The notes beneath the pieces are model-generated. The model did not search any database. It saw nothing but the letters and a program-made list of their open reading frames with translations, and was not told the origin of the DNA. This document shows, piece after piece, positions 1 to 15,855 of a DNA stretch of 24,000 bases. Within the stretch, counting starts at the first letter, position 1. The number at the start of each line of letters is the position of its first letter. The position numbers and the translations under genes were made by a program. The DNA comes from Candidatus Saccharimonadota bacterium (GTDB lineage Bacteria; Patescibacteriota; Saccharimonadia; Saccharimonadales; UBA10212), in assembly GCA_028288985.1 (NCBI GenBank), contig JAQGHE010000007.1:1-24000 (forward strand), written 5' to 3'.

Positions 1-3000
1 GACCGCGGTAACATCAAAGCCAACTTCAACAGTATCGGCGAGGTGACCTTCACTGATAAGAATGTGGTTTCTGATAATATTCGTAATTACGCCCCAAACG
101 GCTCGGACTTTTGCCGGCCCGATACGATTGTTTCTAATCCCGATAAGCTTAAGACAAACATCGGTTACGGCATCAACGTCAGCCCTGCCGGAAGTTTTAG
201 CGCCACGGCCGCCAACGGCCAAACCACGCTGGGCCTAGATGCGGAAGTAAAACTAGGTTTTAAGGGAGCAGCGGGTGCCTGCCAAGGTGTATTATTTAAG
301 GCTAAAATAAGCAACCCAGACGGCGTGGCGGAGGCTCTCTTCAAATGGAACGGAGCCAGCATATCAACTCTAGATGGGGCCCAAGACCAGTATACGTTTG
401 ACCAAGGCTCCGGCCTTCTCTACTTGTCGGGTTCTGCTTGCGGTACCTCAACTCTACGGGCAATCTTACTGGACTCTAGCGGGAGTAGCACCGGAAAATA
501 CTATGAGCTGCAAGACATTGGGTTCAACACCTCTAACATCCCTGGTCAATATCCGGCTCTCAATAAGCCTGAGTTCGGTTTTTCAGCCGGTTGTAATGTC
601 TTAGATGGAAGCTTCAAGACAATTAGGATTGCCGGCGCTTCAAGCGGCACCGGGCCCTCGTCATCTACCTCATCATCAACTACAGACGATACTTCCGCTT
701 GCATCCTTAATAGCAACACGACTCTGGAATGGCTTGCCTGTCCTGTAATAACAGCTATTAGTAAAACTGCCGATGGACTCAATAAATTAGTTGAAGATCA
801 GCTAAATTTCAAGACCCAGAAATTCTTAACGCCGGATGTACACAAAGTATGGGCGATCTTCAAAAACTTAGTATCGTCCATGCTTGTGATTGTGATGTTA
901 ATTATGGTTTTTGCACAGGCAATAGGCAGCCAACGGCTGGATGCCTACACGGTCAAAAAAATGCTGCCAAGGCTAGTGATCGCCGTCATAGGTATGCAGA
1001 TTTCATGGGATTTATGCCAGTGGATAATTGGGCTAGCAAACCACGCAGGGGAGGGGATAGGCCAGATAATGGCCGCGCCATTTGGAGGGGCTGGTAATTT
1101 GGATTTAGGTAGTTTGCTAAACCATCTTAACCCGGTGTGGGCAGGTGTAACGTCCGTTACATTAGTGGCTCTTTTGTTTGCAGCCCCCACCCTCGGCTTT
1201 CTATTTCTTCCCGGGGTCGCTTTGGCGGCCTTTGGGGTCTTTATGTCGGTATTAGTAGCACTGGCTACTTTGCTGTTCCGAAATGCGTTGATCATCACCC
1301 TAGTTATGGTATCGCCTATTGCACTCCTCCTATGGGTTTTCCCGGGTTCCGGGACACAGAAGTACTGGAAGTTATGGACGGATAACTTCACCAAAATACT
1401 GCTTCTCTTCCCAATCATGATATCTGTGATTTATGGAGGGCGTATTTTTGCCTATGTGGCGGGGGGACTTCAACCTCCGGGAGTTCTAGATTTTGTTATG
1501 GTATTAATAGGATTCTTTGCACCTTACGCCATACTGCCAAAGGCCTTCAAGTGGGGCGGATCGTTCCTCTCTGCGGCTTATCGAAATGCCGGCGAAAGCG
1601 GCCTAACCAAAAGGCTCCGTGATAGCGGCAATAGGCTTGTCGGGCAGGACTTCAATAACTACTGGAAGGGCAGGATGGCCCGTGAAAGGTATGATCCTTA
1701 TGATAAAAAGTATGGGGTCAGCAGGGCCAAAGTAAGAGGGAAAAGTATCCCAATCCCCATATTGAGGGGCAGGCTGGCGGGGAGGCTTGGTTCTCAGCAC
1801 TTGATGCCCACGGCCCACGGCCGCGCACAGGCCTTACGGGAGGGTGCTACCTGGGCAGGTGAGAGGAAGCAAGATGCTGAAGCCTTCGACAGAAGGATGT
1901 TTGACCTGGCCCAAGAACATGGTTATGCCGTCGATGAGGAAGACAAAGCCTTCCTGCCCGGATTGCCGGAAAATAAGAACAGAAAAGCCAAAAAATACAC
2001 AAATGCCAGGGGTGAAGAAAAGGAGGCCAGGTGGGAACCGGGCGTCGCCGCCGCCAAACAGGCCTTGGTTGATTTAACTTCAATTGCTAACAGTGGAGAT
2101 AAGCGTGTCTCGCAAATGGCCATAGATCTACTTGTTGCAACCAGTTCTAACCCTGAGATTGAAAACAATGTAGTCACCCACGGACCAGAGGCGGGTACCC
2201 GCGTATTCCGCACCAAGACATCAACCGGCAACACCGTCTGGGAAGAGTATATTGGCGGCAGCGACAAGTATGGCACCATAGCCCAAAGCAACTACGACCT
2301 TCAGACCCATGTCCTACAGTACAAATATGATAAAGAAAGGCCCGATCCAAAGAAGAACCCATTGGCGGCCTTCTTGTACGATAAGGCTTTGGTAGAAGGA
2401 CATACTCCCAAAGATCTTGAGGCCGGGACGATTAGAATGGATGACCCGGAGCGCACCCTATACGTAATGGCCAAGGACGCTACGCTGAATGAGTTATCTC
2501 CTCAGAGCCTAGGCTTCTGGCAGCGCCAGCAACGACACCAGCGCTCCGGTGACAAGGAAACACAGCAAGCAATAGGTGATGCCTTGCTGCTCAAACAATT
2601 CGCTAAACTGGTGGCCTTGGGTCCGGGCGGTGTGGGTCAATTTGCGCCTTTCAGGGGTGAGAAGGAAGATATTATCAATAGGATGTTGGCCGAATCCGGC
2701 GCCAAAACGCTAGATGGGAAAAACATAACCGTGGACAATTTGGTTGACATGGCCGGCGACCGCCAAAAATTAGAGGAACATGTCGCTTGGGCACGACCAA
2801 AGTCAAGAGCCCTTGGCGACGAAGACGATGATGGCCCCCCGCCACCACCGCCTCCAGGCGGCCCACCACCATCAGGCAGTCCGCCACCAGCTGGCTCGCC
2901 TCCAACTCCACCAACCAGCGGATCTTCGCCGCCATCGCCTAGTGACGGTCCGGAAACTCCTGCGGGGCCGAGCGCTTCAGGAGGGCTACCATCGGACCCC

Positions 3001-3399
3001 TCCCTCGGAGGAGGTGGTGGTGGCGCAGATGACCATACCGGTGACCGTTCTAGAAGTGCTGGTTCCGGGGCAGCCGGCACCAGAAACGCTTCCCCCAACG
3101 AGCTAATAGTCAATCATCGAAACCGAGCAGAGAACGTAAGCGGAAGCGCCACCGGCACAGGCGCCCCGATTGAAGTCAAGATTTCTTCAGAGTCTATGGG
3201 CGGTCTAACAGATCGCTTGAGACCGGCAATGAAATCTGAATTCAACAAATCGCTGGAAAATTCCGGCCTGATGGATAGACCGCGCCCTCAATGGACTCCA
3301 CCACCAAGTTCAGTCTCAACGCCACCCCCTGGAGCAACTATCCGGCCGAGTGAATCTCCCGAGGCGCCAGCAACCGAACCTGATGAGGAGAATAAGTAA
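1..3399 (+). CDS. VirB6/TrbL-like polytopic membrane protein of a T4SS-like apparatus, probably 5'-truncated by the window, with a long hydrophilic C-terminal region and a Pro/Gly-rich tail
   Basis: Frame 1 is open from nt 1 (DRGNIKANFNSIGE precedes the GTG at 43). The first ~270 aa have no signal peptide or TM although they look extracytoplasmic (Cys pairs, S/T linker GPSSSTSSSTTDD), so the true start is probably upstream. Residues ~270-500 carry about seven hydrophobic helices (e.g. LVSSMLVIVMLIMVFAQAI, VTLVALLFAAPTLGFLFLPGVALAAFGVFMSVLVALATLLF, LIITLVMVSPIALLLWVF, ILLLFPIMISVIYGGRIFAYVAGG, FVMVLIGFFAPYAIL). The gene sits directly upstream of the PrgI-like and VirB4 genes with a TAATG stop/start overlap at 3397-3401. 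The family call rests on architecture and context, not on a recognised motif. Confidence 0.6.
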   Translation, partial: DRGNIKANFNSIGEVTFTDKNVVSDNIRNYAPNGSDFCRPDTIVSNPDKLKTNIGYGINVSPAGSFSATAANGQTTLGLDAEVKLGFKGAAGACQGVLFKAKISNPDGVAEALFKWNGASISTLDGAQDQYTFDQGSGLLYLSGSACGTSTLRAILLDSSGSSTGKYYELQDIGFNTSNIPGQYPALNKPEFGFSAGCNVLDGSFKTIRIAGASSGTGPSSSTSSSTTDDTSACILNSNTTLEWLACPVITAISKTADGLNKLVEDQLNFKTQKFLTPDVHKVWAIFKNLVSSMLVIVMLIMVFAQAIGSQRLDAYTVKKMLPRLVIAVIGMQISWDLCQWIIGLANHAGEGIGQIMAAPFGGAGNLDLGSLLNHLNPVWAGVTSVTLVALLFAAPTLGFLFLPGVALAAFGVFMSVLVALATLLFRNALIITLVMVSPIALLLWVFPGSGTQKYWKLWTDNFTKILLLFPIMISVIYGGRIFAYVAGGLQPPGVLDFVMVLIGFFAPYAILPKAFKWGGSFLSAAYRNAGESGLTKRLRDSGNRLVGQDFNNYWKGRMARERYDPYDKKYGVSRAKVRGKSIPIPILRGRLAGRLGSQHLMPTAHGRAQALREGATWAGERKQDAEAFDRRMFDLAQEHGYAVDEEDKAFLPGLPENKNRKAKKYTNARGEEKEARWEPGVAAAKQALVDLTSIANSGDKRVSQMAIDLLVATSSNPEIENNVVTHGPEAGTRVFRTKTSTGNTVWEEYIGGSDKYGTIAQSNYDLQTHVLQYKYDKERPDPKKNPLAAFLYDKALVEGHTPKDLEAGTIRMDDPERTLYVMAKDATLNELSPQSLGFWQRQQRHQRSGDKETQQAIGDALLLKQFAKLVALGPGGVGQFAPFRGEKEDIINRMLAESGAKTLDGKNITVDNLVDMAGDRQKLEEHVAWARPKSRALGDEDDDGPPPPPPPGGPPPSGSPPPAGSPPTPPTSGSSPPSPSDGPETPAGPSASGGLPSDPSLGGGGGGADDHTGDRSRSAGSGAAGTRNASPNELIVNHRNRAENVSGSATGTGAPIEVKISSESMGGLTDRLRPAMKSEFNKSLENSGLMDRPRPQWTPPPSSVSTPPPGATIRPSESPEAPATEPDEENK
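2821..3025 (+). repeat. Low-complexity Pro/Ser/Gly-rich coding tract inside the VirB6-like gene
   Basis: Translates to DEDDDGPPPPPPPGGPPPSGSPPPAGSPPTPPTSGSSPPSPSDGPETPAGPSASGGLPSDPSLGGGGGG. The DNA is runs of ccn/ggn codons, which also create a stop-free antisense shadow ORF (2637..3113). Confidence 0.85.
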
Positions 3400-4406
3400 T
3401 GGCAGTATATAAGGTAATCCAGGATATTGAGGCCGAGGATAAACTGCTGGGACCGCTGACCTTCAAGGGCTTGGTTTATGCCGGGATAGCCGTAATCTGC
3501 GGCTTCATCAACTTCAAGCTTCTGACTGTCACAGCCCTAGGACCTTTTAAGTGGGTTTTAATTTTAGCTTTACTGTTTCCGATGATTCTGTTCGGTGTTT
3601 TAGCCTCTCCCCTTGGCCGGGAACAGCCGACTGAGGTGTGGCTGTTGTCGCGCGTGCGCTTTTTTCTAAAACCGCATGTGCGTATCTGGGACCAGTCCGG
3701 TATTACCGAGCTGGTAACCATTACCGTGCCCAAGAAAGTCATGAGGCAGCTGACTAAAAGCTTCAGCCAGGGCGAGGTAACCAGCCGGCTGCAGGCTCTC
3801 GCCACCACCCTTGATAGTCGCGGCTGGGCGGTTAAAAACATTAACGTAAACCTTAATGCCGAACCAAATTACTTTTCCGCCCAAGATGAGTCCGATCGGC
3901 TGATTGCCGCCGAGAACATGGCCATGGAAGTACCGGAAATTGATGTGCACGCCGCCGATGACATGCTAGACGAACAAAGCAATCCTACTGCTCAAAACTT
4001 CCAGAACATGATTGTCCAAGCTGAAGAAGCAAGGCGTCAACAGATGGCCGAGCGGTTAAACCAGGCTCGTTTGGCGGCTGAGACTGCCGCCGCCAAGGCC
4101 GCAGCCGAAGCAGCAAAGAGGCCCCCAAAATCTCTAATTCCCGAACCCGAACAAATAGAAAGGCTACAGGAAATCCATCCACATGAGGAGAAGATCCATG
4201 ACTTGCGGCCAATTTACGAGATCCACCGCAGTGCTAAATCCGGCTTAATTCACGACCTTAAATCAGGAAGCCCTAACAGAGTGACAGCCGAAGGCCAAAC
4301 TGATAAACTGGAGCTAGCCCAAAGTGGTAATGATTTAAGCGTGGCTTCTATCGCGAGTTTGGCAAACCGCAATCCCCGGGGTGAAGCGGCATCAGCAGCC
4401 AGTTAA
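3399..4406 (+). CDS. PrgI-family (VirB3-like) T4SS membrane protein with a ~200-aa C-terminal extension
   Basis: The N-terminus MAVYKVIQDIEAEDKLLGPLTFKGLVYAGIAVICGFINFKLL is followed by a second TM (FKWVLILALLFPMILFGVLASPL) and then GREQPTEVWLLSRVRFFLKP. This matches the pattern I know from PrgI-family proteins that precede VirB4 in Gram-positive conjugation systems. GAGGAG Shine-Dalgarno (SD) ~8 nt upstream; start overlaps the upstream stop (TAATG). The C-terminal part is hydrophilic with an Ala-rich, coiled-coil-like stretch (RRQQMAERLNQARLAAETAAAKAAAEAAK). Confidence 0.6.
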   Translation: MAVYKVIQDIEAEDKLLGPLTFKGLVYAGIAVICGFINFKLLTVTALGPFKWVLILALLFPMILFGVLASPLGREQPTEVWLLSRVRFFLKPHVRIWDQSGITELVTITVPKKVMRQLTKSFSQGEVTSRLQALATTLDSRGWAVKNINVNLNAEPNYFSAQDESDRLIAAENMAMEVPEIDVHAADDMLDEQSNPTAQNFQNMIVQAEEARRQQMAERLNQARLAAETAAAKAAAEAAKRPPKSLIPEPEQIERLQEIHPHEEKIHDLRPIYEIHRSAKSGLIHDLKSGSPNRVTAEGQTDKLELAQSGNDLSVASIASLANRNPRGEAASAAS

Positions 4407-4439
4407 AACTAAAATTCAGTACCAGCGGGTGGGTAAAAA

Positions 4440-5264
4440 ATGAATGACGCTCCTACAAATTATCAGACCACTCCAGCCGCGGCTGGCGGCCAACCCATGC
4501 CCGCGCAAACAGGCGCGGCGGCTGTTAAAAATAATCCCAACTCCACTCAAAATACGCTGTTAATAGGCGAGATTCGTGACGGTATCGTCATTATGAACGA
4601 CGGAACTTTCCGGGCGGTAGTTATGTGCAAATCGATCAACTTTGATCTGATGAGTCCCCAGGAAAGGGAAGCAGTGGAATTCAGCTACCAGGGATTCTTA
4701 AACTCACTATATTTTCCAGTCCAAATTTTTATCCGCAGCCAACGGGTCGATATCCGGCCTTACCTGGAGAAACTAGCCAAAATCCGCGGCGAGCACGACA
4801 ACATGCTGCTTGGTCTTTTGATGGATGATTACATCGACTTTCTGGCTAACATTGCCCAACAGACAAACATCATGGATAAGCGCTTTTATGTAGTCATCCA
4901 GTACCCGGACCCGGACGAAAAAGCCAGAAGCGCCCTGCGCCAATCGAAAAGCTTTTTTGGCGGCTTATCAGAGATGTTTACGCCCAATAAGATTCCTCAC
5001 ATCACCATAGACGAAACCCACCTGGAAAACGCCAAGACCGAACTGCGCAACCGGGTTCAGGCCGTCATGCAGGGGCTGCAGCAGTGCGGCGTACAGAGTC
5101 TGCCGCTTGATACCGAGGAACTGATTGAGCTTTATTACGGCGCCTATAACCCGGATACGGCTACCCGCCAGCAGCTTAAAAACTTCGAGAATATGACCGC
5201 TTCGGTTATCACGGGCGGAGCCGGGGCGGCTCCTCAGCCTAATCTTGATCGGGAGGTAAGCTAA
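4440..5264 (+). CDS. T4SS-associated protein resembling the N-terminal (pre-ATPase) domain of Tn916-Orf16/ConE-type VirB4, with no ATPase motifs
   Basis: A disordered N-terminus is followed by LLIGEIRDGIVIMNDGTFRAVVMCKSINFDLMSPQEREAVEFSYQGFLNSLYFPVQIFIRSQRVDIRPYLEKL. This follows the I-x-DGI-x-DG-x-Y/F...INF-x-L...E-x-E...F-x-x-FLN pattern I recall from N-termini of Gram-positive VirB4 homologues. No Walker motif is present. The stop overlaps the VirB4 start (TAATG at 5262-5266). The CDS is solid; the function is tentative. Confidence 0.55.
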   Translation: MNDAPTNYQTTPAAAGGQPMPAQTGAAAVKNNPNSTQNTLLIGEIRDGIVIMNDGTFRAVVMCKSINFDLMSPQEREAVEFSYQGFLNSLYFPVQIFIRSQRVDIRPYLEKLAKIRGEHDNMLLGLLMDDYIDFLANIAQQTNIMDKRFYVVIQYPDPDEKARSALRQSKSFFGGLSEMFTPNKIPHITIDETHLENAKTELRNRVQAVMQGLQQCGVQSLPLDTEELIELYYGAYNPDTATRQQLKNFENMTASVITGGAGAAPQPNLDREVS

Positions 5265-7189
5265 TGGGCTTACTTGGCAAAAGGAAGCAGCCCCAGGTAG
5301 ACCCGGCCGTTCTTCAGCAGGCCCGCGAACAGCAGGAGGTCAGCGCTGCTTTCGCTAAAGGCATTACGGCTCTACGCGACTTTATTGCTCCCAGTTCGCT
5401 GGAGTTTGCCGGCAATTATTTTCAGTTGGGCACGCGCTACGCCCGAACTTATTATGTGTACGGTTACCCGCGCCAACTTTACACCGGCTGGCTTTCCGGC
5501 ATGGTGAACCTCGATGAAGTCATCGACCTTTCGCTTATAGTCCAGCCCGTGCGAAGCGAGATCGTACTGGATAATCTGCGCAAAAAAGTTTCTCAGCTAG
5601 AAGCCGGTATCCAGATAGATTCCGAAAAGGGCAGGGTGCGCGACCCCGGTAAGCAAGCTGCTGTGCAGGATGCCGAGGAGATGCGCGATAAACTGCAGGT
5701 GGGCGAGGAACGTTTTTTCCGCTTCGGCCTGTACTTCACTATTTATGGCAGCTCAATGGAAGAACTGGAGTTCGTTAGCCACAAAGTTGAGTCGCTGCTC
5801 GGCCAGCAGCTAGTCTACTCCAAGCCGGCCACCGCCCAGCAGGAGCAGGCCCTAAATAGCGTAGTGCCGCAGTTTGCCGACCAACTGCAGATCTACCGCA
5901 ATATGAATACCGGCGCCCTGTCGACCAGCTTCCCATTCACATCGGCCGATTTGACGCAGGAAAACGGCATTTTGTACGGCATCAATATGCATAACTCCGG
6001 TCTGGTTATTTTTGACCGCTTCAGTTTAGAAAACGGCAACAGCGTAGTTTTTGCCAAATCCGGCGCCGGTAAAAGCTTTGCCGTAAAACTTGAGGCTCTG
6101 CGCAGCATGATGTTCGGTACCGAAATCTTTATAATCGATCCTGAAAACGAGTACCAGAAAATGTGCGACGCTGTCGGCGGGGCTTATGTGCGCCTCAGCC
6201 TTAATTCCAGCACGCGCATCAATCCGTTTGACTTGCCGCAAGTGGTCGACTCTGAGGAGTCCGACAACCCCCTGCGCTCCAACCTGATTACCCTGCACGG
6301 CTTGCTGCGCCTAATGATGGGCGGGGCTCAGGCTCAGGTGCAGCAGCAGGGCGGAACGACCATGATGCCGGCCCTTACCCCGGCAGAAGAGGCTGATCTG
6401 GATGCCGCCTTGATTGAGACTTATGCCAAAGCCGGTATTACTAATGATCCGCTGACGCATGGTTCGCCGCCGCCGACCATCAGTGATCTTTATGAAACAC
6501 TCCTGCACATGGGCGGCACTGGGCCGCAGCTGGCGCAGCGTCTGCGAAAATACACTAGCGGCACCTTCGCGGGCATCTTCAGCCAGCCCAGCAACGTCAA
6601 CGTCAATAACTCCATGGTAGTTTTCAACATTCGCGATCTGGAGGACGAGCTGCGCCCCGTGGCTATGTATATCGTGCTGAACCATATATGGAACCGCACC
6701 AAAGTGGATAAAAAGCGCCGCATGCTTATAGTCGACGAGGCCTGGCAGCTGATGAAATACGAAGACAGTGCAAACTTTTTATTCTCCTTGGCCAAACGGG
6801 CCCGCAAATATAACCTCGGCATCACTACCATAACCCAGGATGTGGAGGACTTTATGGCCAGCCGTATGGGCCGGGCAATTGTGGCCAATGCCAGCATGCA
6901 GCTGCTGCTTAAGCAGTCACCAACGGCTGTGGACGTCCTGGCCGACGTCTTTAAGCTGACTAGCGAAGAGAAGAAACGCCTCAGTCAATTTCCAGTCGGC
7001 CAAGGCTTATTTTTCGCCGGTCAAAACCACGTGCACATCCAGATCATACCCAGCCAAACTGAGGCCGATCTAATCAGCACCACGCCGGTGCCAACTCAAC
7101 AAACTCCAGCGAATCCCAATGTCTTACCTCAATATAGCCCTACTCCCCTCACTCCCGCTACCAATGAGATCCAGCCCCCGGGAGCTTAA
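5264..7189 (+). CDS. virB4: VirB4/TraE/PrgJ-type T4SS ATPase
   Basis: Walker A AKSGAGKS at 6053..6076 and Walker B LIVDEAW at 6725..6745. The PrgJ-like N-terminal domain is present (FIAPSSLEFAGNYFQLGTRYARTYYVYGYPRQLYTGWLSGMVNLDEVIDLSLIVQPV), and the C-terminal motif ITTITQDVEDF is typical of the family. GGGAGG SD 7 nt upstream. Confidence 0.9.
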   Translation: MGLLGKRKQPQVDPAVLQQAREQQEVSAAFAKGITALRDFIAPSSLEFAGNYFQLGTRYARTYYVYGYPRQLYTGWLSGMVNLDEVIDLSLIVQPVRSEIVLDNLRKKVSQLEAGIQIDSEKGRVRDPGKQAAVQDAEEMRDKLQVGEERFFRFGLYFTIYGSSMEELEFVSHKVESLLGQQLVYSKPATAQQEQALNSVVPQFADQLQIYRNMNTGALSTSFPFTSADLTQENGILYGINMHNSGLVIFDRFSLENGNSVVFAKSGAGKSFAVKLEALRSMMFGTEIFIIDPENEYQKMCDAVGGAYVRLSLNSSTRINPFDLPQVVDSEESDNPLRSNLITLHGLLRLMMGGAQAQVQQQGGTTMMPALTPAEEADLDAALIETYAKAGITNDPLTHGSPPPTISDLYETLLHMGGTGPQLAQRLRKYTSGTFAGIFSQPSNVNVNNSMVVFNIRDLEDELRPVAMYIVLNHIWNRTKVDKKRRMLIVDEAWQLMKYEDSANFLFSLAKRARKYNLGITTITQDVEDFMASRMGRAIVANASMQLLLKQSPTAVDVLADVFKLTSEEKKRLSQFPVGQGLFFAGQNHVHIQIIPSQTEADLISTTPVPTQQTPANPNVLPQYSPTPLTPATNEIQPPGA

Positions 7190-7202
7190 GGCTATATAAG
7201 CT

Positions 7203-10200
7203 ATGGCTAATGTGACCCTAGACCCTCGTCAGCAGGGCAATTCTAGTCAAAACTCTGGCGGAAGGGGCCGGCGGACCCGCATCAGGCTAAAGGCCAACGT
7301 TGAAACCGAGACAAAAATTGACTCTGCAACCCCCGTTTCTTCCAGCTCTACTCAAAACGCTCCAGCGATTAATGCGAACAGCCCGGCGCCTGAACCGGCG
7401 CCAAGTGCGCCGTCAAGCTACGGCAATATGCAACCGGCTCAGTCGCCGTACGACTCTCCGGGGAGTCAAACTTCTGAACCGTGGGGTGGCTCTAAAAATA
7501 AAAGTGAGGATGGGCCTGCAGAGACCGGCAGAGGTGATCAGAATACTGGTAGGGCTGATAACCAAGAGGCGACTCAAAGTAATAATCAATCAGTTCCAAA
7601 TACTGCCCAGAGTAACCCTAATATGGGACAATCCCAGCCTACAGCCGGCACTAGAGAAAGTGGCGAGGACGACAAAAATACAAGCTACGGCAGCCAAGGG
7701 GCGAGTCCCAATAGCGGGGGCGGCGGGGAATCAAATGATACGACGGCAGACCCCCAAAAACCAGGCAGCCAAACTTCGGCGTCTGACATTAATGAGTCTA
7801 CTTACGATACTCCCGGCAACCAGCCCTCCAAAGCTGACGATGCTCAACCATCTGGCAATAGCAATCCGGAATCGGAAGGCAAACAATCGGCTTCTCCTCG
7901 GGAAAACTTAGCCAAAGAGGAGGCTGCAGCTGCCGGTTTTAATTACTCCGGAGGCTCAGGCCATGAGAACAAGGTAGGCAAAGGCTATAACAAAAGCCCG
8001 CTTGCTAAAAACCGCCTAGGATTTTTTGGCCAGCGACGGGCGCTTCTGGGCTTAATAAGCGTAGCCCTTGTCGGCGGACTGCTCTCTTTTGGCAGTTTTT
8101 TCAGCACCTTTAAGCTAAACGGTATCATGGAGAATGTTTCGGCCCGCACCTTCGCCCGGCTTAACGGGGTGGAAGATAGGCGCTCTCAGGCTTGGACGCG
8201 TGCCTACATACAGATGAGGTTGATGGACTGGGGCAATAACCCGGATATGACCCCAGGTAAAGAGGAGAATGCCTTGTTTCGGGCTAGCCGGGTCAATCAT
8301 GGATTTACGATTAACCAACTGGCGCTGGACTGGTACCGCACGCTGCGAACCTCGTCGTTCGAGCAGGATGTTTTTGAAAAGCATGGTATTAAGTTTACCT
8401 CTGTTTTCACAGCCGACGGTAAAGTGCGCCCCGGAATAATTAACATCAACGGCGAGAAGACAATGATTGAGCCGGGCAAGGATATACCGATTGCCGATTA
8501 TGAGGGTATTGCCAATGGCAATATAAAAGTCCTCAACAAATACCAAGCCATGCTTGATACCAAGGTCTTTGCTAACGATAAATCCGCCCGCAAAGAAATA
8601 AAGGCGGTTGTAGACAATAACACTCACCATTGGCAGGTTTTCCAGCGGCGGCAGATCAGAAAATCCATCCAGAATATGACGGGGGTACGAAACTGGCGCT
8701 TTTTTGAGAAAACCCGCAATAAGATTGATGATAGTAAAATAAAGATTCGCAACAATATAATCGCTGCCGCCATTCCGGAAAGTACAAAGTCCGGAAAGTT
8801 CGTACGTTGCCTGTTTGGTATATCCTCGTGTACATTCAGCGAGGATCCAGCAGACCCCCAAAATCAGAGCAATAGGGACCTGGCAGGCAACAGCACCACC
8901 AACCCTGGAGACTCCGTAAAAGAAATAGACCCTTCAACCGGCAAGACGATAGACAGCAAGGTTGTCATTGACCTTCAGCCGGCTGCCGATATGGTTAAGA
9001 AAGTAACGGCCGATATCCTGCAAAAGGCAGCACCTGTCATAAATGCTTTAAATATAGTCTCTACCCTGGATAGTCTGAAGGGTATCGATAAAGCTATCCA
9101 AAACAACGATATCAGCAAGTCCGTGGCGGTTGCCAGAGGCATACAGGCTATGGGGCTTTACCAGGTTTTCCAGACGGCCAGCGATCAGTTGAAGACCGGC
9201 CAAGTCAACGGACAGCAGGTCAATGAGTTTATGAAAGTCATCGGACCGGCAGCCTCCAGCGAAGGCTACACCAAAGTTATTGCCGGTAGTGGAGACGGTA
9301 CACCTTTTACGGCGCTTGGCTGGCCTAAATCAGTCAATGCGGCCGCCGACCCCACCAAACTGACCGATTCTGATAAAGCCAAATTTTACTGCACACCAGA
9401 AAACCAGGCTAAGCTGCAAAAAGACCCCAGCCTAGCCGACAAGGATCCAAGGTTTTCTTTCGCTTATCTGTGCCCGGACAAACAGATCGGCAGCAGCACC
9501 AACGCTAATAAAATACAAACCGCCTATAACAGTAGTATCGGCGGTGTCATCCACCCCCTCCTTACTGCCTATGGAAAGGTACGAGATATACCGCTCCTTG
9601 GCGATCTGCTTAGCCTCGCCAACAACATGCTAGGCAGATTATCCGGGTTGGCAACCTCGACTATAAAACCGATACTTTCTGCCCTGGGAATATCCGACGA
9701 CATTACCAAATTTATGGAGTACGTGACACTTAAGATTACCGCCTTCCTGGGCGCCGGGCCGATCATGTCCGGCACAGAGCAGGCTGGTGTTTTTATAAAC
9801 TGGGTGATCCAGGGCGGCGCCTACTCGGCCGAGGCCAGCTCTAGGGCTAACGGCGCTAGTCTTACCACTCCACAGAGCATGGCTGAGTCTACCTTGGCTC
9901 TTAACGGCTATCTGCAAGATAAAAATTCTCAAACCTCCGTGGCGACCAAACTGTTCTCTCTGTCTAATCCGGACTCGCTGGCTTATCGAGCATCGTTTGC
10001 CATCAGCGATCTCAGCCTTTCAAATATATCCAACCGTTTAGTTGGTTTTGCTTCCGGCTTTGGTTCTATTTTCGGATTAGCCTTCCACCATGCGGCCGCG
10101 GCTGCTCCCAGTGGCTATGCGGCTTCCAATTTTGCCGGCATACACACCTTTGATTTTCCATCCCAGTGCTACGGAGACCCTCTACTGGCGACCCCTCAAA

Positions 10201-10979
10201 GCAGCACCAATATCCAGCAGGTTCTCAAAGATAAGAATATCCCCGATAGCGAACTGACTTGGGATTTAGTTACTAATTCTGACAGCTGGTACCAATACGT
10301 CTACAGCAAGACAGACAACGACAGCCTAGCCCAACAGATATATAACTGTGCTCTGCTGGATACTTCTATCAGGGGCGGCCTTGGCAACTTATATGGCTAC
10401 ACCTCCGATAACGGCTTGAATGATTCGGCCGCGCCCTCGGCTGCTACTCAAGTAGCAGCCGGATCAGTGGATATGGCCAGTCTGTTTAATGACTCGCAGA
10501 GTGTCGCCTGTGCGCCAAACACTAAGGATTTGGGCATTCAAGATGGCTACCACACCGGTCAGCTGGTAAAAATCCGGATTTGTTCCGTGCCTGCGGTCCC
10601 CAGCACTTCCCAAGAAAGCAATGGGGGTTTTGGAGTAAGCGGAGCCGGAGGAGGGGTAGTGGTTAATTCCAGGGTCTCGGGAGCAGTCTATGCTATGGCT
10701 CAGGCCGCTAAAGCCAGCGGGGTTTCGCTTACGGCCACCAGCGGATTCAGGACTATGTCCCATCAGCAGTCGCTATGTCCTTGCGACGGCGTGAGGGTAG
10801 GCCTGCCTGGCTATTCCAATCACCAGATGGGATTGGCTATTGATTTTGGCGATCTGCCATCAACTCCGGGTCCTGTACCGGGCAATACCGTCTGGGCGTG
10901 GCTAAGCGGCAACGCTGACAAGTTCGGTTATAAAAATTACCAAGCCGAAGCCTGGCATTGGTCCCCGACCGGCAATTAA
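7203..10979 (+). CDS. Giant bitopic T4SS-associated protein: disordered cytoplasmic N-terminus, one TM, large extracytoplasmic region, C-terminal peptidase M15 (VanY/D-Ala-D-Ala carboxypeptidase-like) cell-wall hydrolase domain
   Basis: The ~280-aa N-terminus is S/N/Q/P/G-rich low complexity (7203..~8040). A single TM, ALLGLISVALVGGLLSFGSFFSTF, lies at ~8041..8110. The C-terminal motifs are SGFRTMSHQQSL, SNHQMGLAIDF (H-x6-D at 10821..10844) and AEAWHWSP (His at 10956..10958). Together these give the H/D/H zinc-ligand pattern of the VanY/M15B family. Confidence 0.75.
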   Translation: MANVTLDPRQQGNSSQNSGGRGRRTRIRLKANVETETKIDSATPVSSSSTQNAPAINANSPAPEPAPSAPSSYGNMQPAQSPYDSPGSQTSEPWGGSKNKSEDGPAETGRGDQNTGRADNQEATQSNNQSVPNTAQSNPNMGQSQPTAGTRESGEDDKNTSYGSQGASPNSGGGGESNDTTADPQKPGSQTSASDINESTYDTPGNQPSKADDAQPSGNSNPESEGKQSASPRENLAKEEAAAAGFNYSGGSGHENKVGKGYNKSPLAKNRLGFFGQRRALLGLISVALVGGLLSFGSFFSTFKLNGIMENVSARTFARLNGVEDRRSQAWTRAYIQMRLMDWGNNPDMTPGKEENALFRASRVNHGFTINQLALDWYRTLRTSSFEQDVFEKHGIKFTSVFTADGKVRPGIININGEKTMIEPGKDIPIADYEGIANGNIKVLNKYQAMLDTKVFANDKSARKEIKAVVDNNTHHWQVFQRRQIRKSIQNMTGVRNWRFFEKTRNKIDDSKIKIRNNIIAAAIPESTKSGKFVRCLFGISSCTFSEDPADPQNQSNRDLAGNSTTNPGDSVKEIDPSTGKTIDSKVVIDLQPAADMVKKVTADILQKAAPVINALNIVSTLDSLKGIDKAIQNNDISKSVAVARGIQAMGLYQVFQTASDQLKTGQVNGQQVNEFMKVIGPAASSEGYTKVIAGSGDGTPFTALGWPKSVNAAADPTKLTDSDKAKFYCTPENQAKLQKDPSLADKDPRFSFAYLCPDKQIGSSTNANKIQTAYNSSIGGVIHPLLTAYGKVRDIPLLGDLLSLANNMLGRLSGLATSTIKPILSALGISDDITKFMEYVTLKITAFLGAGPIMSGTEQAGVFINWVIQGGAYSAEASSRANGASLTTPQSMAESTLALNGYLQDKNSQTSVATKLFSLSNPDSLAYRASFAISDLSLSNISNRLVGFASGFGSIFGLAFHHAAAAAPSGYAASNFAGIHTFDFPSQCYGDPLLATPQSSTNIQQVLKDKNIPDSELTWDLVTNSDSWYQYVYSKTDNDSLAQQIYNCALLDTSIRGGLGNLYGYTSDNGLNDSAAPSAATQVAAGSVDMASLFNDSQSVACAPNTKDLGIQDGYHTGQLVKIRICSVPAVPSTSQESNGGFGVSGAGGGVVVNSRVSGAVYAMAQAAKASGVSLTATSGFRTMSHQQSLCPCDGVRVGLPGYSNHQMGLAIDFGDLPSTPGPVPGNTVWAWLSGNADKFGYKNYQAEAWHWSPTGN

Positions 10980-10986
10980 ACCGCTA

Positions 10987-11015
10987 TTGCTTTTCCTTAT
11001 AAAATATGCTATTAT
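10987..11015 (+). promoter_or_regulatory. Candidate sigma70-type promoter with extended -10 (TTGCTT-17 nt-TATTAT; TGCTATTAT at 11007..11015)
   Basis: TTGCTT at 10987..10992, a 17-nt spacer, then TATTAT at 11010..11015 preceded by TGc. It lies in the AT-rich gap immediately after the M15-protein stop and upstream of the high-GC ORF. An overlapping alternative is TTAAAC (10976..10981)-18 nt-TAAAAT (11000..11005). Confidence 0.4.
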
Positions 11016-11104
11016 AGCGTAGTTCCTCGGTTCTAGCTAGCCCCCAAGGGCCAAGCTTCCGAGAGAACGTTCTTCCCGACAATCTACGCGTGAAAGGTGA
11101 GACG

Positions 11105-11590
11105 ATGCGCCGCAAGCGGACATTCGTTCTTCTGGTCATGAGCTTTGCAGCCATGACCGCAGTGTTCGGCGCCGCCACCGGCAGCGCCGCCACGACCTCG
11201 AAGAAGTTCAGCGTGACTCCCGTCTTGAGCAAACTTCCGGACGGGACCATCAAGGTTGTCCTCACCCTCAAGTACGACGGCCCCGGTAACTCCGGTCGGA
11301 TCTCCGTCGTCTACTCGAGCTTCGCTACGAGACCGTGGCATGTCCAGACGGTCCACCCCCTCATGGGTTCGCTGAAGGCCCGCGGCTACCAGTCGCGGCA
11401 CAACCCAAGTATGCCGGACTACGAAGTGATGGTGATCGGCGGGATCAACTCCGGCGACACCACTAGCGTCTCGGCGCTCTACAGGCTCCCCTTTAAGGGT
11501 GAGTTCTTCCTGAACTTCTTCAGCTGTCCGCTGAAGTACTACAAGAGCGACCCCAAGACCTACTGCGTGACCCAACTATTCCACATCTAA
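11105..11590 (+). CDS. Small secreted protein of unknown function in a compositionally foreign (high GC3) cassette
   Basis: ATG at 11105 is preceded by GAAAGGTGAG (SD-like); the GTG at 11090 in the ORF track is less likely. The N-terminus MRRKRTFVLLVMSFAAMTAVFGAATGSAA is a classic Sec signal peptide with A-x-A-like cleavage. The mature ~135 aa has two Cys (FSCPLKYYKSDPKTYC). Codon third positions are strongly G/C, and two hairpins follow the stop. I recognise no family. Confidence 0.75.
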   Translation: MRRKRTFVLLVMSFAAMTAVFGAATGSAATTSKKFSVTPVLSKLPDGTIKVVLTLKYDGPGNSGRISVVYSSFATRPWHVQTVHPLMGSLKARGYQSRHNPSMPDYEVMVIGGINSGDTTSVSALYRLPFKGEFFLNFFSCPLKYYKSDPKTYCVTQLFHI

Positions 11591-11602
11591 GTCGGGAAGA
11601 GT

Positions 11603-11624
11603 CCGCCGCCCTCCGGGGCGGCGG
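11603..11624 (+). terminator. GC-rich perfect hairpin (CCGCCGCCC-TCCG-GGGCGGCGG) without a U-tract
   Basis: A 9-bp all-G/C stem with a 4-nt loop, 13 nt after the stop at 11590. It resembles the tail-less I-shaped terminators common in high-GC Actinomycetota. Confidence 0.5.
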
Positions 11625-11643
11625 CACTCCCAAGTACGAGACG

Positions 11644-11669
11644 ACCCGCTAACAGCGGGTTTTTTGTTT
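11644..11669 (+). terminator. Rho-independent terminator (ACCCGC-TAACA-GCGGGT followed by TTTTTGTTT)
   Basis: A 6-bp GC-rich stem (11644..11649 / 11655..11660) is immediately followed by a T-run at 11661..11669. Confidence 0.8.
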
Positions 11670-11694
11670 ATAACACCTTAGGGCATGATAAAAT
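11664..11694 (+). promoter_or_regulatory. Candidate promoter with extended -10 (TGaTAAAAT) placed 6 nt before the ATG at 11701, implying a leaderless mRNA
   Basis: TTGTTT at 11664..11669, TG at 11686..11687 and TAAAAT at 11689..11694. A 6-nt spacer (ACGCTT) precedes ATG 11701. There is no SD-like purine tract before this ATG. Confidence 0.45.
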
Positions 11695-11700
11695 ACGCTT

Positions 11701-13005
11701 ATGCTAAAAGAAGGGCGCCGCAGAGCTTCGTGTGCATTGCTGACTCTTCTTTTTTTATGCCTATATATATTTTCTCCCGTTGCCAGCGCCATAAATGCTG
11801 ACGCTATAAAAGCCCTGCAGACGCCGTTTTATGACCCCAACGATAGCATTAGTTGCGGCTCGGCGGCAGTAGGATCAGTTGCTTCGCAGAAGAACATAGA
11901 CTATGCCGGGAGGCCTATTCTTAACCAGGGAATGCTGAAGGCTCTTGCTGAGAACCAGCCGGTTTACGTGCAGGCGGCGGACGCGGCCGGGATCCCTTGG
12001 CAGGCTTTAGCGGCGCTGCACTACCGGGAGCACAGCCTCATCGCCGACTCGCCGAACTCTGACGGAGCCTATCAGATAGTGGGCGGAAAGTACCCTGTGG
12101 GCAATCTGACAAAAGAGCAGTTTTTGGCCCAAAGCATTGATGCCGCTAACTTCATCAAACAGAAAGAGCCGGATTTAACCACAAGCCCCGCGGCAGCAAC
12201 CATAAAGAATGCCTTCGCCCTATATAACGGTTTGCCCGCTTTGTATAAAAGCCAGGCGGTAGCACTCGGATTCAAGGATTCTCAAGGCTATGAGGGCTCT
12301 CCGTATGTCATGAATATAGCAGACGCGCGGAGGGATAACAGCGCAGTGGGGGCTAACCCTAACACATGGCTGCAGTATAGAAGCGCTTCAATTACGGCGC
12401 CGGCCACCAATGACCAATATGGAGCATTTATGGTATACGCCAGCTTGGCCGGGCTGGCTGCTGACGGCGGAGCGTGCGTAGCCAGTACCTGCAGCAACGG
12501 ACCGAGTAATGCCAGCCAGGGATTAAGCCAGGTGCGTCAAAACGTGGTCTGCCTGACTCTGCAGGAGCTGCAAAAATGGGATGTACACAGCGGCAAACTA
12601 ACGCCTGGCAGCGGGTACCTTACATACAGCCAGGATCGCCACGAAGACTGGTGCGCCGACTTCGCCAGCTGGATATACAAACAGGCCGGCTACCCCTTTG
12701 GTGACGGAAACGCTTGGGGCATCCCGGGCGTAGCCAACATCCAGGCGCTAGGGGAGAAGGACAAGAATTTCCATTGGCACCCGGTTGGGACATATGGTCC
12801 CCAGCCCGGAGACCTGGCCATCCACGGCGACAACCACGGCGACTACCACGTGAACCTAGTTACCGGTGTCAACGGTGTCCACCTAACCCTGATCGGGGGC
12901 AACCAGGGCGGGTCCAGCGGCTTTGAAACATCAAGAGTGACAACCTATACGTCTTCGGATTTAACTGACGGAGGCGACATAACGGGCTTTGTGTCGCCGG
13001 AATAA
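11701..13005 (+). CDS. Secreted peptidoglycan hydrolase: C-terminal CHAP domain, possible N-terminal lytic-transglycosylase (SLT)-like region (TraG/PrgK/CwlT-type T4SS hydrolase)
   Basis: Signal peptide MLKEGRRRASCALLTLLFLCLYIFSPVASA. CHAP signature HEDWCADFASWIYKQAGYP (Cys codon 12652..12654) ... GDLAIHGD ... GDYHVNLV (His codon 12847..12849) ... LIGGNQG. The N-terminal half has GIPWQALAALHYREHS...DGAYQIVG (~11989..12090), which loosely recalls the SLT E-S ... G-x-x-Q pattern. This second domain is tentative. Confidence 0.75.
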   Translation: MLKEGRRRASCALLTLLFLCLYIFSPVASAINADAIKALQTPFYDPNDSISCGSAAVGSVASQKNIDYAGRPILNQGMLKALAENQPVYVQAADAAGIPWQALAALHYREHSLIADSPNSDGAYQIVGGKYPVGNLTKEQFLAQSIDAANFIKQKEPDLTTSPAAATIKNAFALYNGLPALYKSQAVALGFKDSQGYEGSPYVMNIADARRDNSAVGANPNTWLQYRSASITAPATNDQYGAFMVYASLAGLAADGGACVASTCSNGPSNASQGLSQVRQNVVCLTLQELQKWDVHSGKLTPGSGYLTYSQDRHEDWCADFASWIYKQAGYPFGDGNAWGIPGVANIQALGEKDKNFHWHPVGTYGPQPGDLAIHGDNHGDYHVNLVTGVNGVHLTLIGGNQGGSSGFETSRVTTYTSSDLTDGGDITGFVSPE

Positions 13006-13014
13006 GGAGATTTT

Positions 13015-13419
13015 ATGTATGACAATCGCCGAAAGAAAATGATAATCGCAGTTGGAGCGGTAGTGTTGGTGTTGATTGCCGGGGCTCTTATTGCAGTCCG
13101 TGGCAACAATCATGCGAAAGACCCTCTCCAGCAGCAGCAGGAGAAGTTCGATAAAACAGCTACGGCTGATCCGATTCTTAACTATCTGCCATATGGGGAC
13201 CTTGGCTACAATATCGTGCCCACCTTCATGGACAAGGATGGTAAACGAATCCTGGTTCTAAACGTATCAGTGATTCTGGCGGGAGCGGATTACAAGCTGC
13301 CGGCGGCGGCTCTTGATAAATTAATCGCTCAGCGGGAGCAGGACGCGCTTTCCTATATAAAATCATCCGGGTTCGATACCAACAAATACACGATTAGCTA
13401 TGAGGTGCCCGCTCACTAG
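13015..13419 (+). CDS. Small N-terminally membrane-anchored protein, last gene of the T4SS-like operon, function unknown
   Basis: Strong SD AAGGAG 7 nt upstream. One TM (MIIAVGAVVLVLIAGALIAV) is followed by a ~100-aa soluble domain. I recognise no family. Confidence 0.7.
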   Translation: MYDNRRKKMIIAVGAVVLVLIAGALIAVRGNNHAKDPLQQQQEKFDKTATADPILNYLPYGDLGYNIVPTFMDKDGKRILVLNVSVILAGADYKLPAAALDKLIAQREQDALSYIKSSGFDTNKYTISYEVPAH

Positions 13420-14483
13420 TCTTTTTGAAGCGGTATGATCCTATGGTTGCCGGTAGCAAAATAGTCCACTACTGTATCGGCATCTGTGGTGGTAATTATT
13501 GTTTGACGGTCTTTTAAGAATTCCACCAAGGCCTTGCGGCGGGCGCCGTCCAGCTCTGAGAAAACGTCGTCCAGCAGGAATATCGGCGAGATGCCGCGCG
13601 ATCTCTCTATCAAATCGAGTTCATATACCTTTAGAGCCAGCATTAAGCTGCGGTTTTCGCCGCGGGATGCCGTAATATTCGCCGGTTGGGCGGCGATATC
13701 GACAGCAAAGTCTTCCCGGTGCGGACCATGCCCGGTAAAACCTCTTTCAAAATCAGCTTGCGCCGTGGCTTCCAGTTTTGACAGCATCCGGCTGCCGTAA
13801 TTATCGGCGGGGAATTGGCTTTTATATTCAAGGCTCACTTTGGTTTTACTGTGGGCAATTTGGCTATACGTCGCACTAAGATTTTTATTAATATCATCGG
13901 TTAGTTCCTGGCGGGCTCTGGCAATCAACTCTCCCAGCTCGCTCAGGCGGATATCCCAGGCGAATAGCTGCTGCTGGCCATACCCGGGGCCTCGTTTTAG
14001 TAGGGCATTACGCTGAGCCAGCGTCCTTTTGTAGTTATTGGCGAGAGGTTTAAACTGTGGGCGGCTGCGGGCCAGCAAATCATCCATATAGTCGCGGCGG
14101 GCATCCGGGCCGCGCGTAATAAGCTGAAGGTGGTTGGGCTCAAAATATACGACTGGCACCGTTTTATCCAAGCCCACGCGTTTATAAGTCTTTTCATCGA
14201 ACAGGTAGGTCTTTTCCAGAGATCCTTCTCGGTACTCTATCTTCAGAGACCTGGTGGATTTATCGAAGTAGCCATCCAGCCGGGTCCAGGGTTTTTTGAA
14301 CTTGATCAGCTCCGGGTCGCGGGCGCGGTAAGAGCTTCCCTCGCACAATACCAATACGGCCTCCATTAGGTTGGTCTTGCCGCTGGCGTTAGGGCCGACG
14401 ATGATGTTAACACCAGGCTCGAACTCAAACGAGTCGTCGCGGTATGAACGGAAGTTCTGCAGACGGATACTGGTTATCATCAA
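13416..14483 (-). CDS. recF: DNA replication and repair protein RecF
   Basis: MMITSIRLQNFRSYRDDSFEFEPGVNIIVGPNASGKTNLMEAV (Walker A GPNASGKT), C-terminal LLDDVFSELD (Walker B/D-loop), and the conserved position after dnaN. Confidence 0.93.
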   Translation of the reverse strand: MMITSIRLQNFRSYRDDSFEFEPGVNIIVGPNASGKTNLMEAVLVLCEGSSYRARDPELIKFKKPWTRLDGYFDKSTRSLKIEYREGSLEKTYLFDEKTYKRVGLDKTVPVVYFEPNHLQLITRGPDARRDYMDDLLARSRPQFKPLANNYKRTLAQRNALLKRGPGYGQQQLFAWDIRLSELGELIARARQELTDDINKNLSATYSQIAHSKTKVSLEYKSQFPADNYGSRMLSKLEATAQADFERGFTGHGPHREDFAVDIAAQPANITASRGENRSLMLALKVYELDLIERSRGISPIFLLDDVFSELDGARRKALVEFLKDRQTIITTTDADTVVDYFATGNHRIIPLQKD

Positions 14484-15585: not shown

Positions 15586-15855
15586 GTTTATTAAAATCCT
15601 TTTAAATTAATAGCAGTATTAGTTATAAGGCCTGTGGACACGGGGGATAATAAATGCGTATCGGGAGAAAAACTAGGCCTGGGGGTGTGTGTAAACCTGT
15701 GGACGATAAGTCGACAAACTGTGACTAGCCTGTGAGAAATTTCACAGAGACTTCTTAAAAATACAACGCTGGCTGTGGTATGTGTGGAGTAAACAGCGCT
15801 TTTTTCAGGCGTTTTCCCGGACTTGTACACGGGCTTTCCACAGAAAGAGGCAGCT
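15586..15855. promoter_or_regulatory. dnaA-dnaN intergenic origin element: DnaA-box-like sites plus an AT-rich candidate unwinding region next to dnaN
   Basis: TGTGGACA at 15633..15640, TGTGGACG at 15698..15705, TGTGGAG at 15783..15789 and CTTTCCACA at 15834..15842, all close variants of TTATCCACA or its complement. The stretch 15586..15628 is strongly AT-rich. Confidence 0.6.
15731..15746. promoter_or_regulatory. Perfect TGTGA-N6-TCACA palindrome (Crp/Fnr-family consensus half-sites)
   Basis: The sequence is TGTGAGAAATTTCACA and extends to CTGTGA...TCACAG (15730..15747). It lies in the dnaA-dnaN intergenic region. Its function is unknown. Confidence 0.3.

Follow-up and report, generated by a model that had tools for sequence, protein, structure and literature searches.

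The 24,000 nt analysed here (the window) form the start of contig JAQGHE010000007.1 (28,776 nt) from a Candidatus Saccharibacteria metagenome-assembled genome (MAG), and they open with a cluster of genes related to type IV secretion systems (T4SSs). We conclude, with a probability of roughly 80%, that this cluster is a vertically inherited, non-conjugative chromosomal T4SS locus of a Saccharimonadales bacterium that acts where epibiont and host meet, either as an attachment pilus or as a contact-dependent conduit. The locus encodes a VirB3 homologue, a VirB4 homologue in two parts, a probable VirB6 and two extracytoplasmic peptidoglycan hydrolases, and it occupies a fixed position next to the replication origin. 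Judged by gene order it corresponds, as a syntenic orthologue, to SEML1_0004-0011 of Southlakia epibionticum ML1, and is an ordinary new example of a described system. What our analysis adds beyond the published accounts is a strong contrast in evolutionary rate between the components and a set of swappable C-terminal modules in the largest of them.

Eight co-directional open reading frames (ORFs) fill positions 1-13419 of the plus strand, with the contig beginning inside the first of them (Table 1). They coincide with the deposited annotation of the MAG (JWO96_97 to _104). The original prediction, which had been made from the sequence alone, had also counted eight co-directional genes. Of the "several" TAATG stop/start overlaps that it described, two are present (at 3399 and 5264), and the remaining junctions are gaps of 9-110 nt. 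Its assignments of PrgI, VirB4, VanY and CHAP all pass curated cut-offs. The PrgI-like protein combines an N-terminal two-helix membrane hairpin, as expected of VirB3, with a C-terminal extension of ~240 amino acids (aa), and its identity ranges from 36 to 57% across 73 related loci. The gene that follows, to which no role had been given, encodes a TrsD/TraD-like protein whose score against the TrsD model (32.9 bits) lies below the curated cut-off of 200, a homology at the level of the domain and not of the subfamily. This protein matches positions 11-135 of the CD1110 VirB4 profile (E 1.5e-7), and its orthologues carry the TraC-like domain PF26593. The adjoining ATPase spans positions 181-741 of the same profile, matches a solved VirB4 domain (PDB 4AG5, E 1.3e-47) and aligns to residues 221-772 of PrgJ from pCF10 (25% identity, E 3e-43). 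Because two adjoining genes match these two parts of a single profile, VirB4 is, by homology, encoded here by two genes, one for the TrsD-like N-domain and one for the ATPase. A split VirB4 is likewise found in the pGO1/pIP501 subclass and across Patescibacteria (Quinonero-Coronel 2025, PMC12102498).

Over all of its 1132 aa, the product of the first ORF matches the deposited protein P0001 (JWO96_97, annotated as "partial") exactly. It is probably an extended VirB6-like protein, an assignment of the original prediction for which we claim moderate support. The gene lies beside virB3 and virB4, and at least five transmembrane helices are indicated by an AlphaFold2 (AF2) model and by hydropathy. 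In the AF2 model of residues 1-900 (mean predicted local distance difference test score, pLDDT, 79) a beta-rich, Cys-containing N-domain is followed by a helical transmembrane bundle at about residues 243-563 (pLDDT ~90) and a helical C-domain (605-898), after which comes a Pro/Gly-rich tail (918-1132). The N-domain is predicted to lie outside the cell, since its cysteines are conserved and full-length homologues have a signal-like N-terminus. A Foldseek search of the PDB gave chains of R388 TrwI/VirB6 as the only high-probability matches (0.75-0.91, target TM-score ~0.5, E 0.6-1.4). Comparison of family profiles by hhalign aligned the membrane region with the VirB6-position protein of an Embleya linear plasmid (96% probability, E 2e-9), and precomputed annotation lists TrbL_3 (PF19590) for P0001 and most of its homologues. 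A search of the family profile against PDB sequences returned low-complexity or coiled-coil noise only. Two relatives show alterations at this gene: in one of them (L006, 14648-15200) a PemK-type toxin gene pair is inserted between the VirB6-like gene and PrgI, and in the other (L005, 10001-13134) the VirB6-like gene is present as two ORFs of 622 aa and 414 aa.

Two wall hydrolases are encoded downstream of VirB4. The first is a 1258-aa protein made up of a polar low-complexity N-terminal tract of ~250 aa, probably cytoplasmic, a transmembrane helix (aa 281-299), a mostly helical outer core of ~800 aa and a C-terminal VanY/LdcB-type M15B domain. The zinc-ligand motifs of this domain, H-x6-D and E-x-x-H, are intact as read from the translation. 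Its AF2 model (pLDDT 75.7) matched VanY and LdcB in Foldseek with a probability of 1.00; the helical core had no match in either PDB or BFVD, the VanY domain being the only part that matched, and a profile of the large-protein family retrieved only VanY-type peptidases from the PDB sequences. A phage tape-measure or ejection-like nature of the core was also considered and is unsupported, such matches reaching probabilities of ≤0.06. The second enzyme is secreted and ends in a CHAP domain. Over aa 16-433 it is 31% identical to an orthologue (L003) that carries SLT and CHAP domains; direct detection of SLT in the window's protein was negative, and its N-domain is probably lysozyme/SLT-like. Among PDB sequences this protein had no match.

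The genomic setting of the locus was compared across relatives. A VirB4 pattern scan of species-representative contigs (185,579 species, one genome each) yielded at least 557 confirmed relatives, and the counts of synteny and rate given below refer to the best 80 of these (L007-L086), chosen by VirB4 score. All 80 are Saccharimonadales-type MAGs, and their VirB4 is 80-89% identical to that of the window. Such a synteny comparison among Saccharibacteria had been suggested with the original prediction. A convergent recF is present in 56 of the 57 loci with ≥9 kb of downstream sequence, at a median distance of 6.1 kb after VirB4. Upstream, a divergent array of VirB2-like pilin genes (PF18895) was found in 46 of the 49 loci with enough upstream flank, and a recognisable VirB6-like gene was present in 54 of 59 related loci. 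Four more distant loci, found via VirB6-like homologues, share the downstream gene order of the window, and one of them also abuts dnaN. Directly upstream they have 4-7 divergent PF18895 pilin genes, followed by Hsp20 in three of the four (the fourth contig ends before this point), and the 10 kb upstream contain only pilins, Hsp20 and housekeeping genes. As the convergence on recF, the pilin array and the VirB6-like gene recur across related loci, the locus is, judging by its synteny, a fixed chromosomal feature and not a mobile element.

The components of the locus differ strongly in their degree of conservation. Median identity to the window is 83% for VirB4, a figure biased upward by the choice of loci according to VirB4 score, 66% for the TrsD-like protein, 48% for PrgI and 31% for the membrane part of the VirB6-like protein, compared with 68% for DnaA, 63% for DnaN and 52% for RecF. 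The core of the large protein was detectable by BLAST in only 10 of the 80 loci, with a median identity of 27%. A VirB4 more conserved than DnaA fits strong purifying selection, and despite the selection bias the contrast in divergence between cytoplasmic and predicted surface-exposed components is still large. By hhalign the large-protein family reaches a probability of 99% to an 886-aa protein of L003 and 98% to a 1054-aa protein of L008, and the large proteins at this position are, as far as profiles tell, one very fast-evolving family. BLAST of the large protein found nothing in L008, although VirB4 and DnaA of this relative are 89% and 84% identical to those of the window, and L030, a more distant genome, has a copy that is 39% identical. 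The similarity of the large protein does not follow genome relatedness, which suggests either exchange or very uneven divergence.

The conserved core of the large protein ends near residue 1075 and is followed by interchangeable C-terminal modules. A C-terminal tail could be delimited in 94 of 96 homologues. The most frequent module is an unnamed peptidase-like domain with an H-x6-D...H-x-H pattern (28 homologues), followed by VanY (17), an M23 cluster (12, plus 2-3 singletons with M23 matches), an M74-like domain (5) and CHAP (1); 23 homologues end in a short tail of ≤14 residues without any module. Further domains were noted in a few homologues, Exo_endo_phos in four and GDSL in one: P0144, P0155, P0157, P0160 and P0134 have one or two such domains of nuclease/phosphatase type (Exo_endo_phos) or lipase type (GDSL) between core and M23. 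The second hydrolase varies as well, consisting of SLT and CHAP in L003, of phage-lysozyme and a C39-like domain in L008, and of phage-lysozyme and M15_4 in L030.

The closest described counterpart is the locus of S. epibionticum ML1, in which dnaA, dnaN and recF are followed by the convergent genes SEML1_0004-0011 (Wang 2023, PMC10633639). Genes 0004 and 0005 encode small exported proteins, 0006 a protein with lysozyme-like domains and a cysteine protease, and 0007 a protein of 1114 aa that in structure best matches proteins with M15B/M23 peptidase domains; 0008 is VirB4, 0009 a 294-aa protein, 0010 PrgI, 0011 and 0013 are VirB6-like, 0012 is NTF2-like, and 0014-0019 are divergent pilins, after which comes Hsp20 (PMC10633639). 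Read from the VirB6-like gene the order is the same as in the window (VirB6-like, PrgI, a TrsD-like protein of ~290 aa, VirB4, a peptidase-like protein of ~1100 aa, the lysozyme/cysteine-peptidase protein and small exported proteins). The sizes are comparable (999/1089, 301, 294, 613 and 1114 aa), and both loci converge on recF-dnaN-dnaA. The two differ in their VirB6-like genes, of which the window shows one and ML1 a pair flanking a non-essential NTF2-like (VirB8-like) gene. The second hydrolase of ML1 carries phage-lysozyme, glucosaminidase and cysteine-protease domains in place of the putative SLT-like domain and CHAP. In the window, an orphan gene is added, the last gene is shorter, and no pilin array is visible. 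Transposon insertion sequencing (Tn-seq), which the original prediction had proposed as a check, has already been carried out in ML1: all of 0004-0019, the orthologues of the window's genes among them, were essential (ES) at the outgrowth time points, except 0012 (PMC10633639). Wang 2023 describes a Gram-positive-like composition with unusual pilins and without coupling protein or relaxase, and proposes protein export, rated likelier than DNA transport, or another role (PMC10633639). The expectation that the machine serves host contact rather than plasmid transfer matches this published reading.

A second account comes from a survey of Patescibacteria, which describes a VirB4 clade related to the mating-pair-formation class MPF-FATA, with TrsD, PrgI, VirB6 and VirB2 arrays, rare relaxases and a position near dnaA, dnaN, rnpA and rpmH (Quinonero-Coronel 2025, PMC12102498). 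The window agrees with it in the MPF-FATA-related VirB4, in TrsD, PrgI and VirB6 near virB4, in the missing relaxase and rarely linked coupling protein and in the chromosomal neighbourhood. We see no substantive difference; the swapping of C-terminal modules and the rate contrast are not described there. The view that the composition of such a system is largely uncharacterised consequently has to be given up, as published work already covers which genes are present, that relaxase and coupling protein are lacking and that the locus lies near dnaA (PMC10633639, PMC12102498).

Family profile scans for relaxases, coupling proteins and integrases gave no match in any of the window's 18 main ORFs, in agreement with the original prediction. 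No att-like flanking repeats were found in the window, the left boundary of the locus being beyond the contig end, and no notable inverted repeat was found in it, an origin of transfer (oriT) being something that sequence alone does not exclude. Of the genes by which conjugative MPF-FATA systems are recognised, a CD1110 VirB4 and PrgI are present in the window, and a coupling protein and a relaxase are absent from it. The core of pCF10 is collinear, PrgH (VirB6), PrgI (VirB3), PrgJ (VirB4), PrgK (wall hydrolase) and PrgL, and its VirB4 is homologous. The window's components are indeed inflated, as had been claimed, relative to PrgH (266 aa versus >1132), PrgI (117 versus 335) and PrgK (871 versus 1258 + 434). 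Unlike the window, pCF10 encodes adhesins, a relaxase and a coupling protein (PcfC); a pilin array is missing from it. Comparison by hhalign of the window's families with pCF10 PrgH and PrgK and with the large proteins of the Pontibacillus cluster described below found nothing. A separate TrsD/TraD gene before VirB4, as in the window, occurs in pGO1 and pIP501, which like Prg/Pcf of pCF10 represent the conjugative T4SSs of Firmicutes (MPF-FATA).

Two plasmid-borne clusters are also similar. The VirB4 of an Embleya sp. linear plasmid (NZ_CP108778, L088) is among the most similar plasmid ones (37.8% identity over 85% of the query). Its genes are ordered VirB6, PrgI, VirB4, coupling protein and replication-relaxation protein, whereas in the window the hydrolase scaffold follows VirB4. 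The annotated 349-aa "PrgI family protein" of Embleya (10308-11357) matches the window's PrgI in its N-part and its TrsD-like protein in its C-part, and these matches make it a fusion of VirB3 and TrsD. Just 5' of the VirB6-position gene there is a pilin-like ORF that lacks annotation. On the megaplasmid of Pontibacillus sp. ALD_SL1 (NZ_CP062975, L087, 351-361 kb), pilin-like Mbov_0395 family genes, a large membrane protein and a small protein are followed by a 274-aa TrsD-like protein, a CD1110 VirB4 and a 1050-aa metallopeptidase, with no coupling protein or relaxase within 12 kb. This cluster differs in belonging to a Firmicute, in its location on a megaplasmid beside flagellar genes and in large proteins without profile similarity to those of the window. 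Further afield, the ComB system of Helicobacter works without coupling protein and without relaxase, and the "extended VirB6" proteins of Rickettsiales bear large extra hydrophilic domains. Ptl of Bordetella and VirB of Brucella have been reported as effector T4SSs without a coupling protein. All of these are diderm systems with outer-membrane cores of VirB7/9/10, unlike the window, and beyond the VirB4 family the likeness is one of description.

In Agrobacterium and R388, VirB4 together with VirB3 and VirB6 extracts and polymerises the VirB2 pilin without need of a coupling protein. Because the gene set and the pilin array of the relatives fit this role, we favour the reading as a builder of a pilus or channel, and because the window has neither relaxase nor coupling protein, we do not regard it as a conjugation apparatus. 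Gene content, homology, synteny and closeness to the origin are shown, and so, in the literature, is the essentiality of the ML1 orthologues; that a pilus is assembled, what the hydrolases act on and that the structure works as a conduit are what we infer. In the proposed mechanism PrgI/VirB3 would anchor a VirB4 hexamer, composed of the products of the TrsD-like and the ATPase gene, at the membrane, with the extended VirB6-like protein as membrane platform. VirB2-like pilins, from an array such as lies beyond the contig end in the relatives, would be extracted by VirB4 and polymerised on VirB6 to give a pilus or channel. The anchored 1258-aa VanY scaffold and the secreted CHAP enzyme would cut peptidoglycan to let this structure cross the wall of the epibiont, and would probably also let it reach into the wall of the host. 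The resulting conduit or pilus would be required for epibiotic growth, as the Tn-seq essentiality of the ML1 orthologues indicates for that organism.

Several observations weigh against this interpretation. The contig ends inside the VirB6-like gene, so that the pilin array is seen in relatives and not in this genome, and a coupling protein or relaxase could sit elsewhere in the genome, like the distant, non-essential coupling-protein homologue that ML1 carries. No VirB8-like (PrgL/TraM, NTF2 fold) family matched any ORF of the window. For the VirB6-like protein, Foldseek gave no PDB match at E < 1e-3, hhalign of the family against pCF10 PrgH was negative, and hmmscan with Pfam found no TrbL_3 in 29 family members. 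This last result we do not count against VirB6, since the hmmscan used never returned PF19590 or PF26593, even where precomputed annotation has them (some at E ≤1e-5). The upward bias of the VirB4 identity belongs here too, as does the fact that no pilus of a Patescibacterium has been demonstrated biochemically; a 2026 preprint goes no further than noting tubes at the interface that "may be" such pili.

We consider conjugation an unlikely role. For it, the locus would have to be part of an integrative conjugative element (ICE), possibly a decaying one, and provide its mating-pair formation for DNA transfer, with relaxase, coupling protein and integrase encoded beyond the left end of the contig or at another site. 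VirB4 does belong to the conjugative CD1110 family, the closest plasmid relatives include a canonical actinobacterial cluster of VirB6, PrgI, VirB4, coupling protein and relaxase, and the left end of the window is truncated. Against an ICE stand a chromosomal site next to recF-dnaN-dnaA that 56 of 57 species-level relatives share, upstream flanks in relatives that hold pilins, Hsp20 and housekeeping genes in place of mobility genes, the missing integrase families and att-like repeats in the window, and a VirB4 more conserved than DnaA. Moreover, relaxases near virB4 numbered just 15 in the survey, which detected 2,474 virB4 genes (Quinonero-Coronel 2025, PMC12102498). We hold the ICE to be highly improbable and rejected it for the fixed chromosomal site.

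What a pilus or channel of this kind would carry is less clear, and we give protein export and import of host material roughly equal weight. As an uptake machine, ComB-like or similar in logic to archaeal Ced, the locus would take up DNA, RNA or other macromolecules from the host to feed an organism unable to make nucleotides. The lack of coupling protein and relaxase is shared with ComB, some homologues of the large scaffold bear nuclease/phosphatase-type EEP domains, and Saccharibacteria are without de novo nucleotide synthesis (Wang 2023, PMC10633639). The 2026 preprint combines its interface tubes with host-RNA feeding in another Patescibacterium, and one review proposes a pilus conduit, speculating on uptake through the pilus. 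There is, however, no direct evidence of import, the similarity of VirB4 to CedB is limited to the P-loop region, and comEC is dispensable in ML1 while the T4SS is essential, so that any uptake would not go via the competence channel; ComEC-linked DNA uptake was rejected on this ground. Uptake is in any case a sub-case of the conduit interpretation rather than a full alternative to it, and we consider it rather doubtful. The same estimate applies to an exporter of protein effectors that injects or releases proteins, wall hydrolases included, to manipulate or damage the host. Wang 2023 rates protein export likelier than DNA transport (PMC10633639), effector systems without coupling protein exist in Bordetella (Ptl) and Brucella (VirB), and the hypervariability of the downstream hydrolase genes is what one would expect of host-facing factors. 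On the other hand there are no known effectors, the hydrolases, each with a signal peptide or membrane anchor of its own, need no such export, and neither a chaperone nor a recognisable secretion signal was found.

Beyond the conduit or attachment pilus itself, one may speculate that the large scaffold with its swappable modules, the variable second hydrolase and the diversified pilins set which host walls can be breached, with the scaffold as a host-facing tip or penetration device. We think this improbable on present evidence. If true, the module type of the scaffold would track the peptidoglycan chemistry of the host and act as a determinant of host range. The window adds one orthologous locus and no new principle; it is the system itself that matters. 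The conserved VirB4, the hypervariable scaffold and the Firmicute locus without coupling protein could guide experiments on host specificity and on the breaching of Gram-positive walls.

The remaining genes of the locus are small. The orphan ORF has a GC content at third codon positions (GC3) of 0.83, compared with 0.55-0.65 in neighbouring genes. It had no homologue in a set of 5.8 billion proteins, where it matched only itself, nor by tblastn in 86 related loci or plasmids; it may have been acquired recently or may evolve very fast. The 134-aa protein, encoded where PrgL would be expected, is the short form of a family whose usual members have ~230 aa and add an Ig-like Big_5 domain; the family has 87 representatives in a library of 1.84 billion proteins, and longer relatives are encoded directly after the hydrolase gene in related loci. 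Its small C-terminal domain recurs in other contexts, with 17 matched stretches in P0172 (5100 aa) and a fusion to a different N-terminal region in P0202, and appears to behave as a mobile extracellular module.

Table 1. Features of the window with coordinates, strand and basis of assignment.
Feature	Position	Strand	Basis or remark
Extended VirB6-like polytopic membrane protein (probable), 5'-truncated by contig end	1-3399	+	1132 aa visible
PrgI/VirB3-like protein, 335 aa	3399-4406	+	Pfam PF12666, E 4.9e-8, 33.8 bits (cut-off 27)
TrsD/TraD-like protein, putative equivalent of a detached VirB4 N-terminal domain, 274 aa	4440-5264	+	NCBIfam TrsD, E 5.2e-8
VirB4 ATPase, 641 aa	5264-7189	+	NCBIfam NF045971 (CD1110 family), E 7.5e-108, 361.7 bits (cut-off 325)
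Large single-pass membrane protein, 1258 aa	7203-10979	+	C-terminal Pfam VanY PF02557, E 3.1e-12, 46.8 bits (cut-off 25)
Orphan ORF, 166 aa (annotated 161 aa), signal-peptide-like N-terminus	11090-11590	+	Codon score 0.17 (coding-like)
Terminator-like GC hairpin with T-run, best of region, 8 bp stem	11643-11661	+	Consensus scan
Promoter-like site just before CHAP gene	11667-11694	+	Consensus scan
Secreted wall hydrolase, 434 aa	11701-13005	+	Signal peptide; C-terminal Pfam CHAP, E 8e-10, 39.5 bits (cut-off 26)
Small single-pass membrane protein, 134 aa	13015-13419	+	Short form of locus-associated family
recF	13416-14483	-	Pfam; convergent with secretion genes
dnaN	14500-15585	-	Pfam; convergent with secretion genes
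dnaA	15856-17244	-	Pfam; convergent with secretion genes
dnaA-rpmH spacer, probable oriC	17245-17558	.	AT-rich, GC 0.37-0.43

On account of the terminator-like hairpin and the promoter-like site after it, the eight genes are possibly transcribed as two units, with the genes for the CHAP enzyme and the 134-aa protein in the second; both sites come from a consensus scan only, in which the total number of sites was not above chance. The claimed adjacency to the origin is confirmed: the probable oriC lies ~3.9 kb from the end of the last secretion gene, and four of the window's nine DnaA-box-like sites, one perfect and three with one mismatch, are clustered there within 136 nt (17292-17427). The spacer between dnaN and dnaA (15586-15855, GC 0.37-0.46) holds a 90-aa ORF (15591-15863) with a non-coding-like codon score of -0.09 and a weak match in one relative only (L008), and could be origin-associated non-coding DNA instead of a gene. 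Beyond dnaA, rpmH, rnpA, yidC and a jag-like gene follow on the plus strand, and then metK and two GT4 glycosyltransferase genes. The metK gene (19710-20672) encodes a short MetK of 320 aa, and directly 5' of it lies an S-adenosylmethionine (SAM) riboswitch (RF00162, 59.7 bits) at 20731-20832 on the minus strand.

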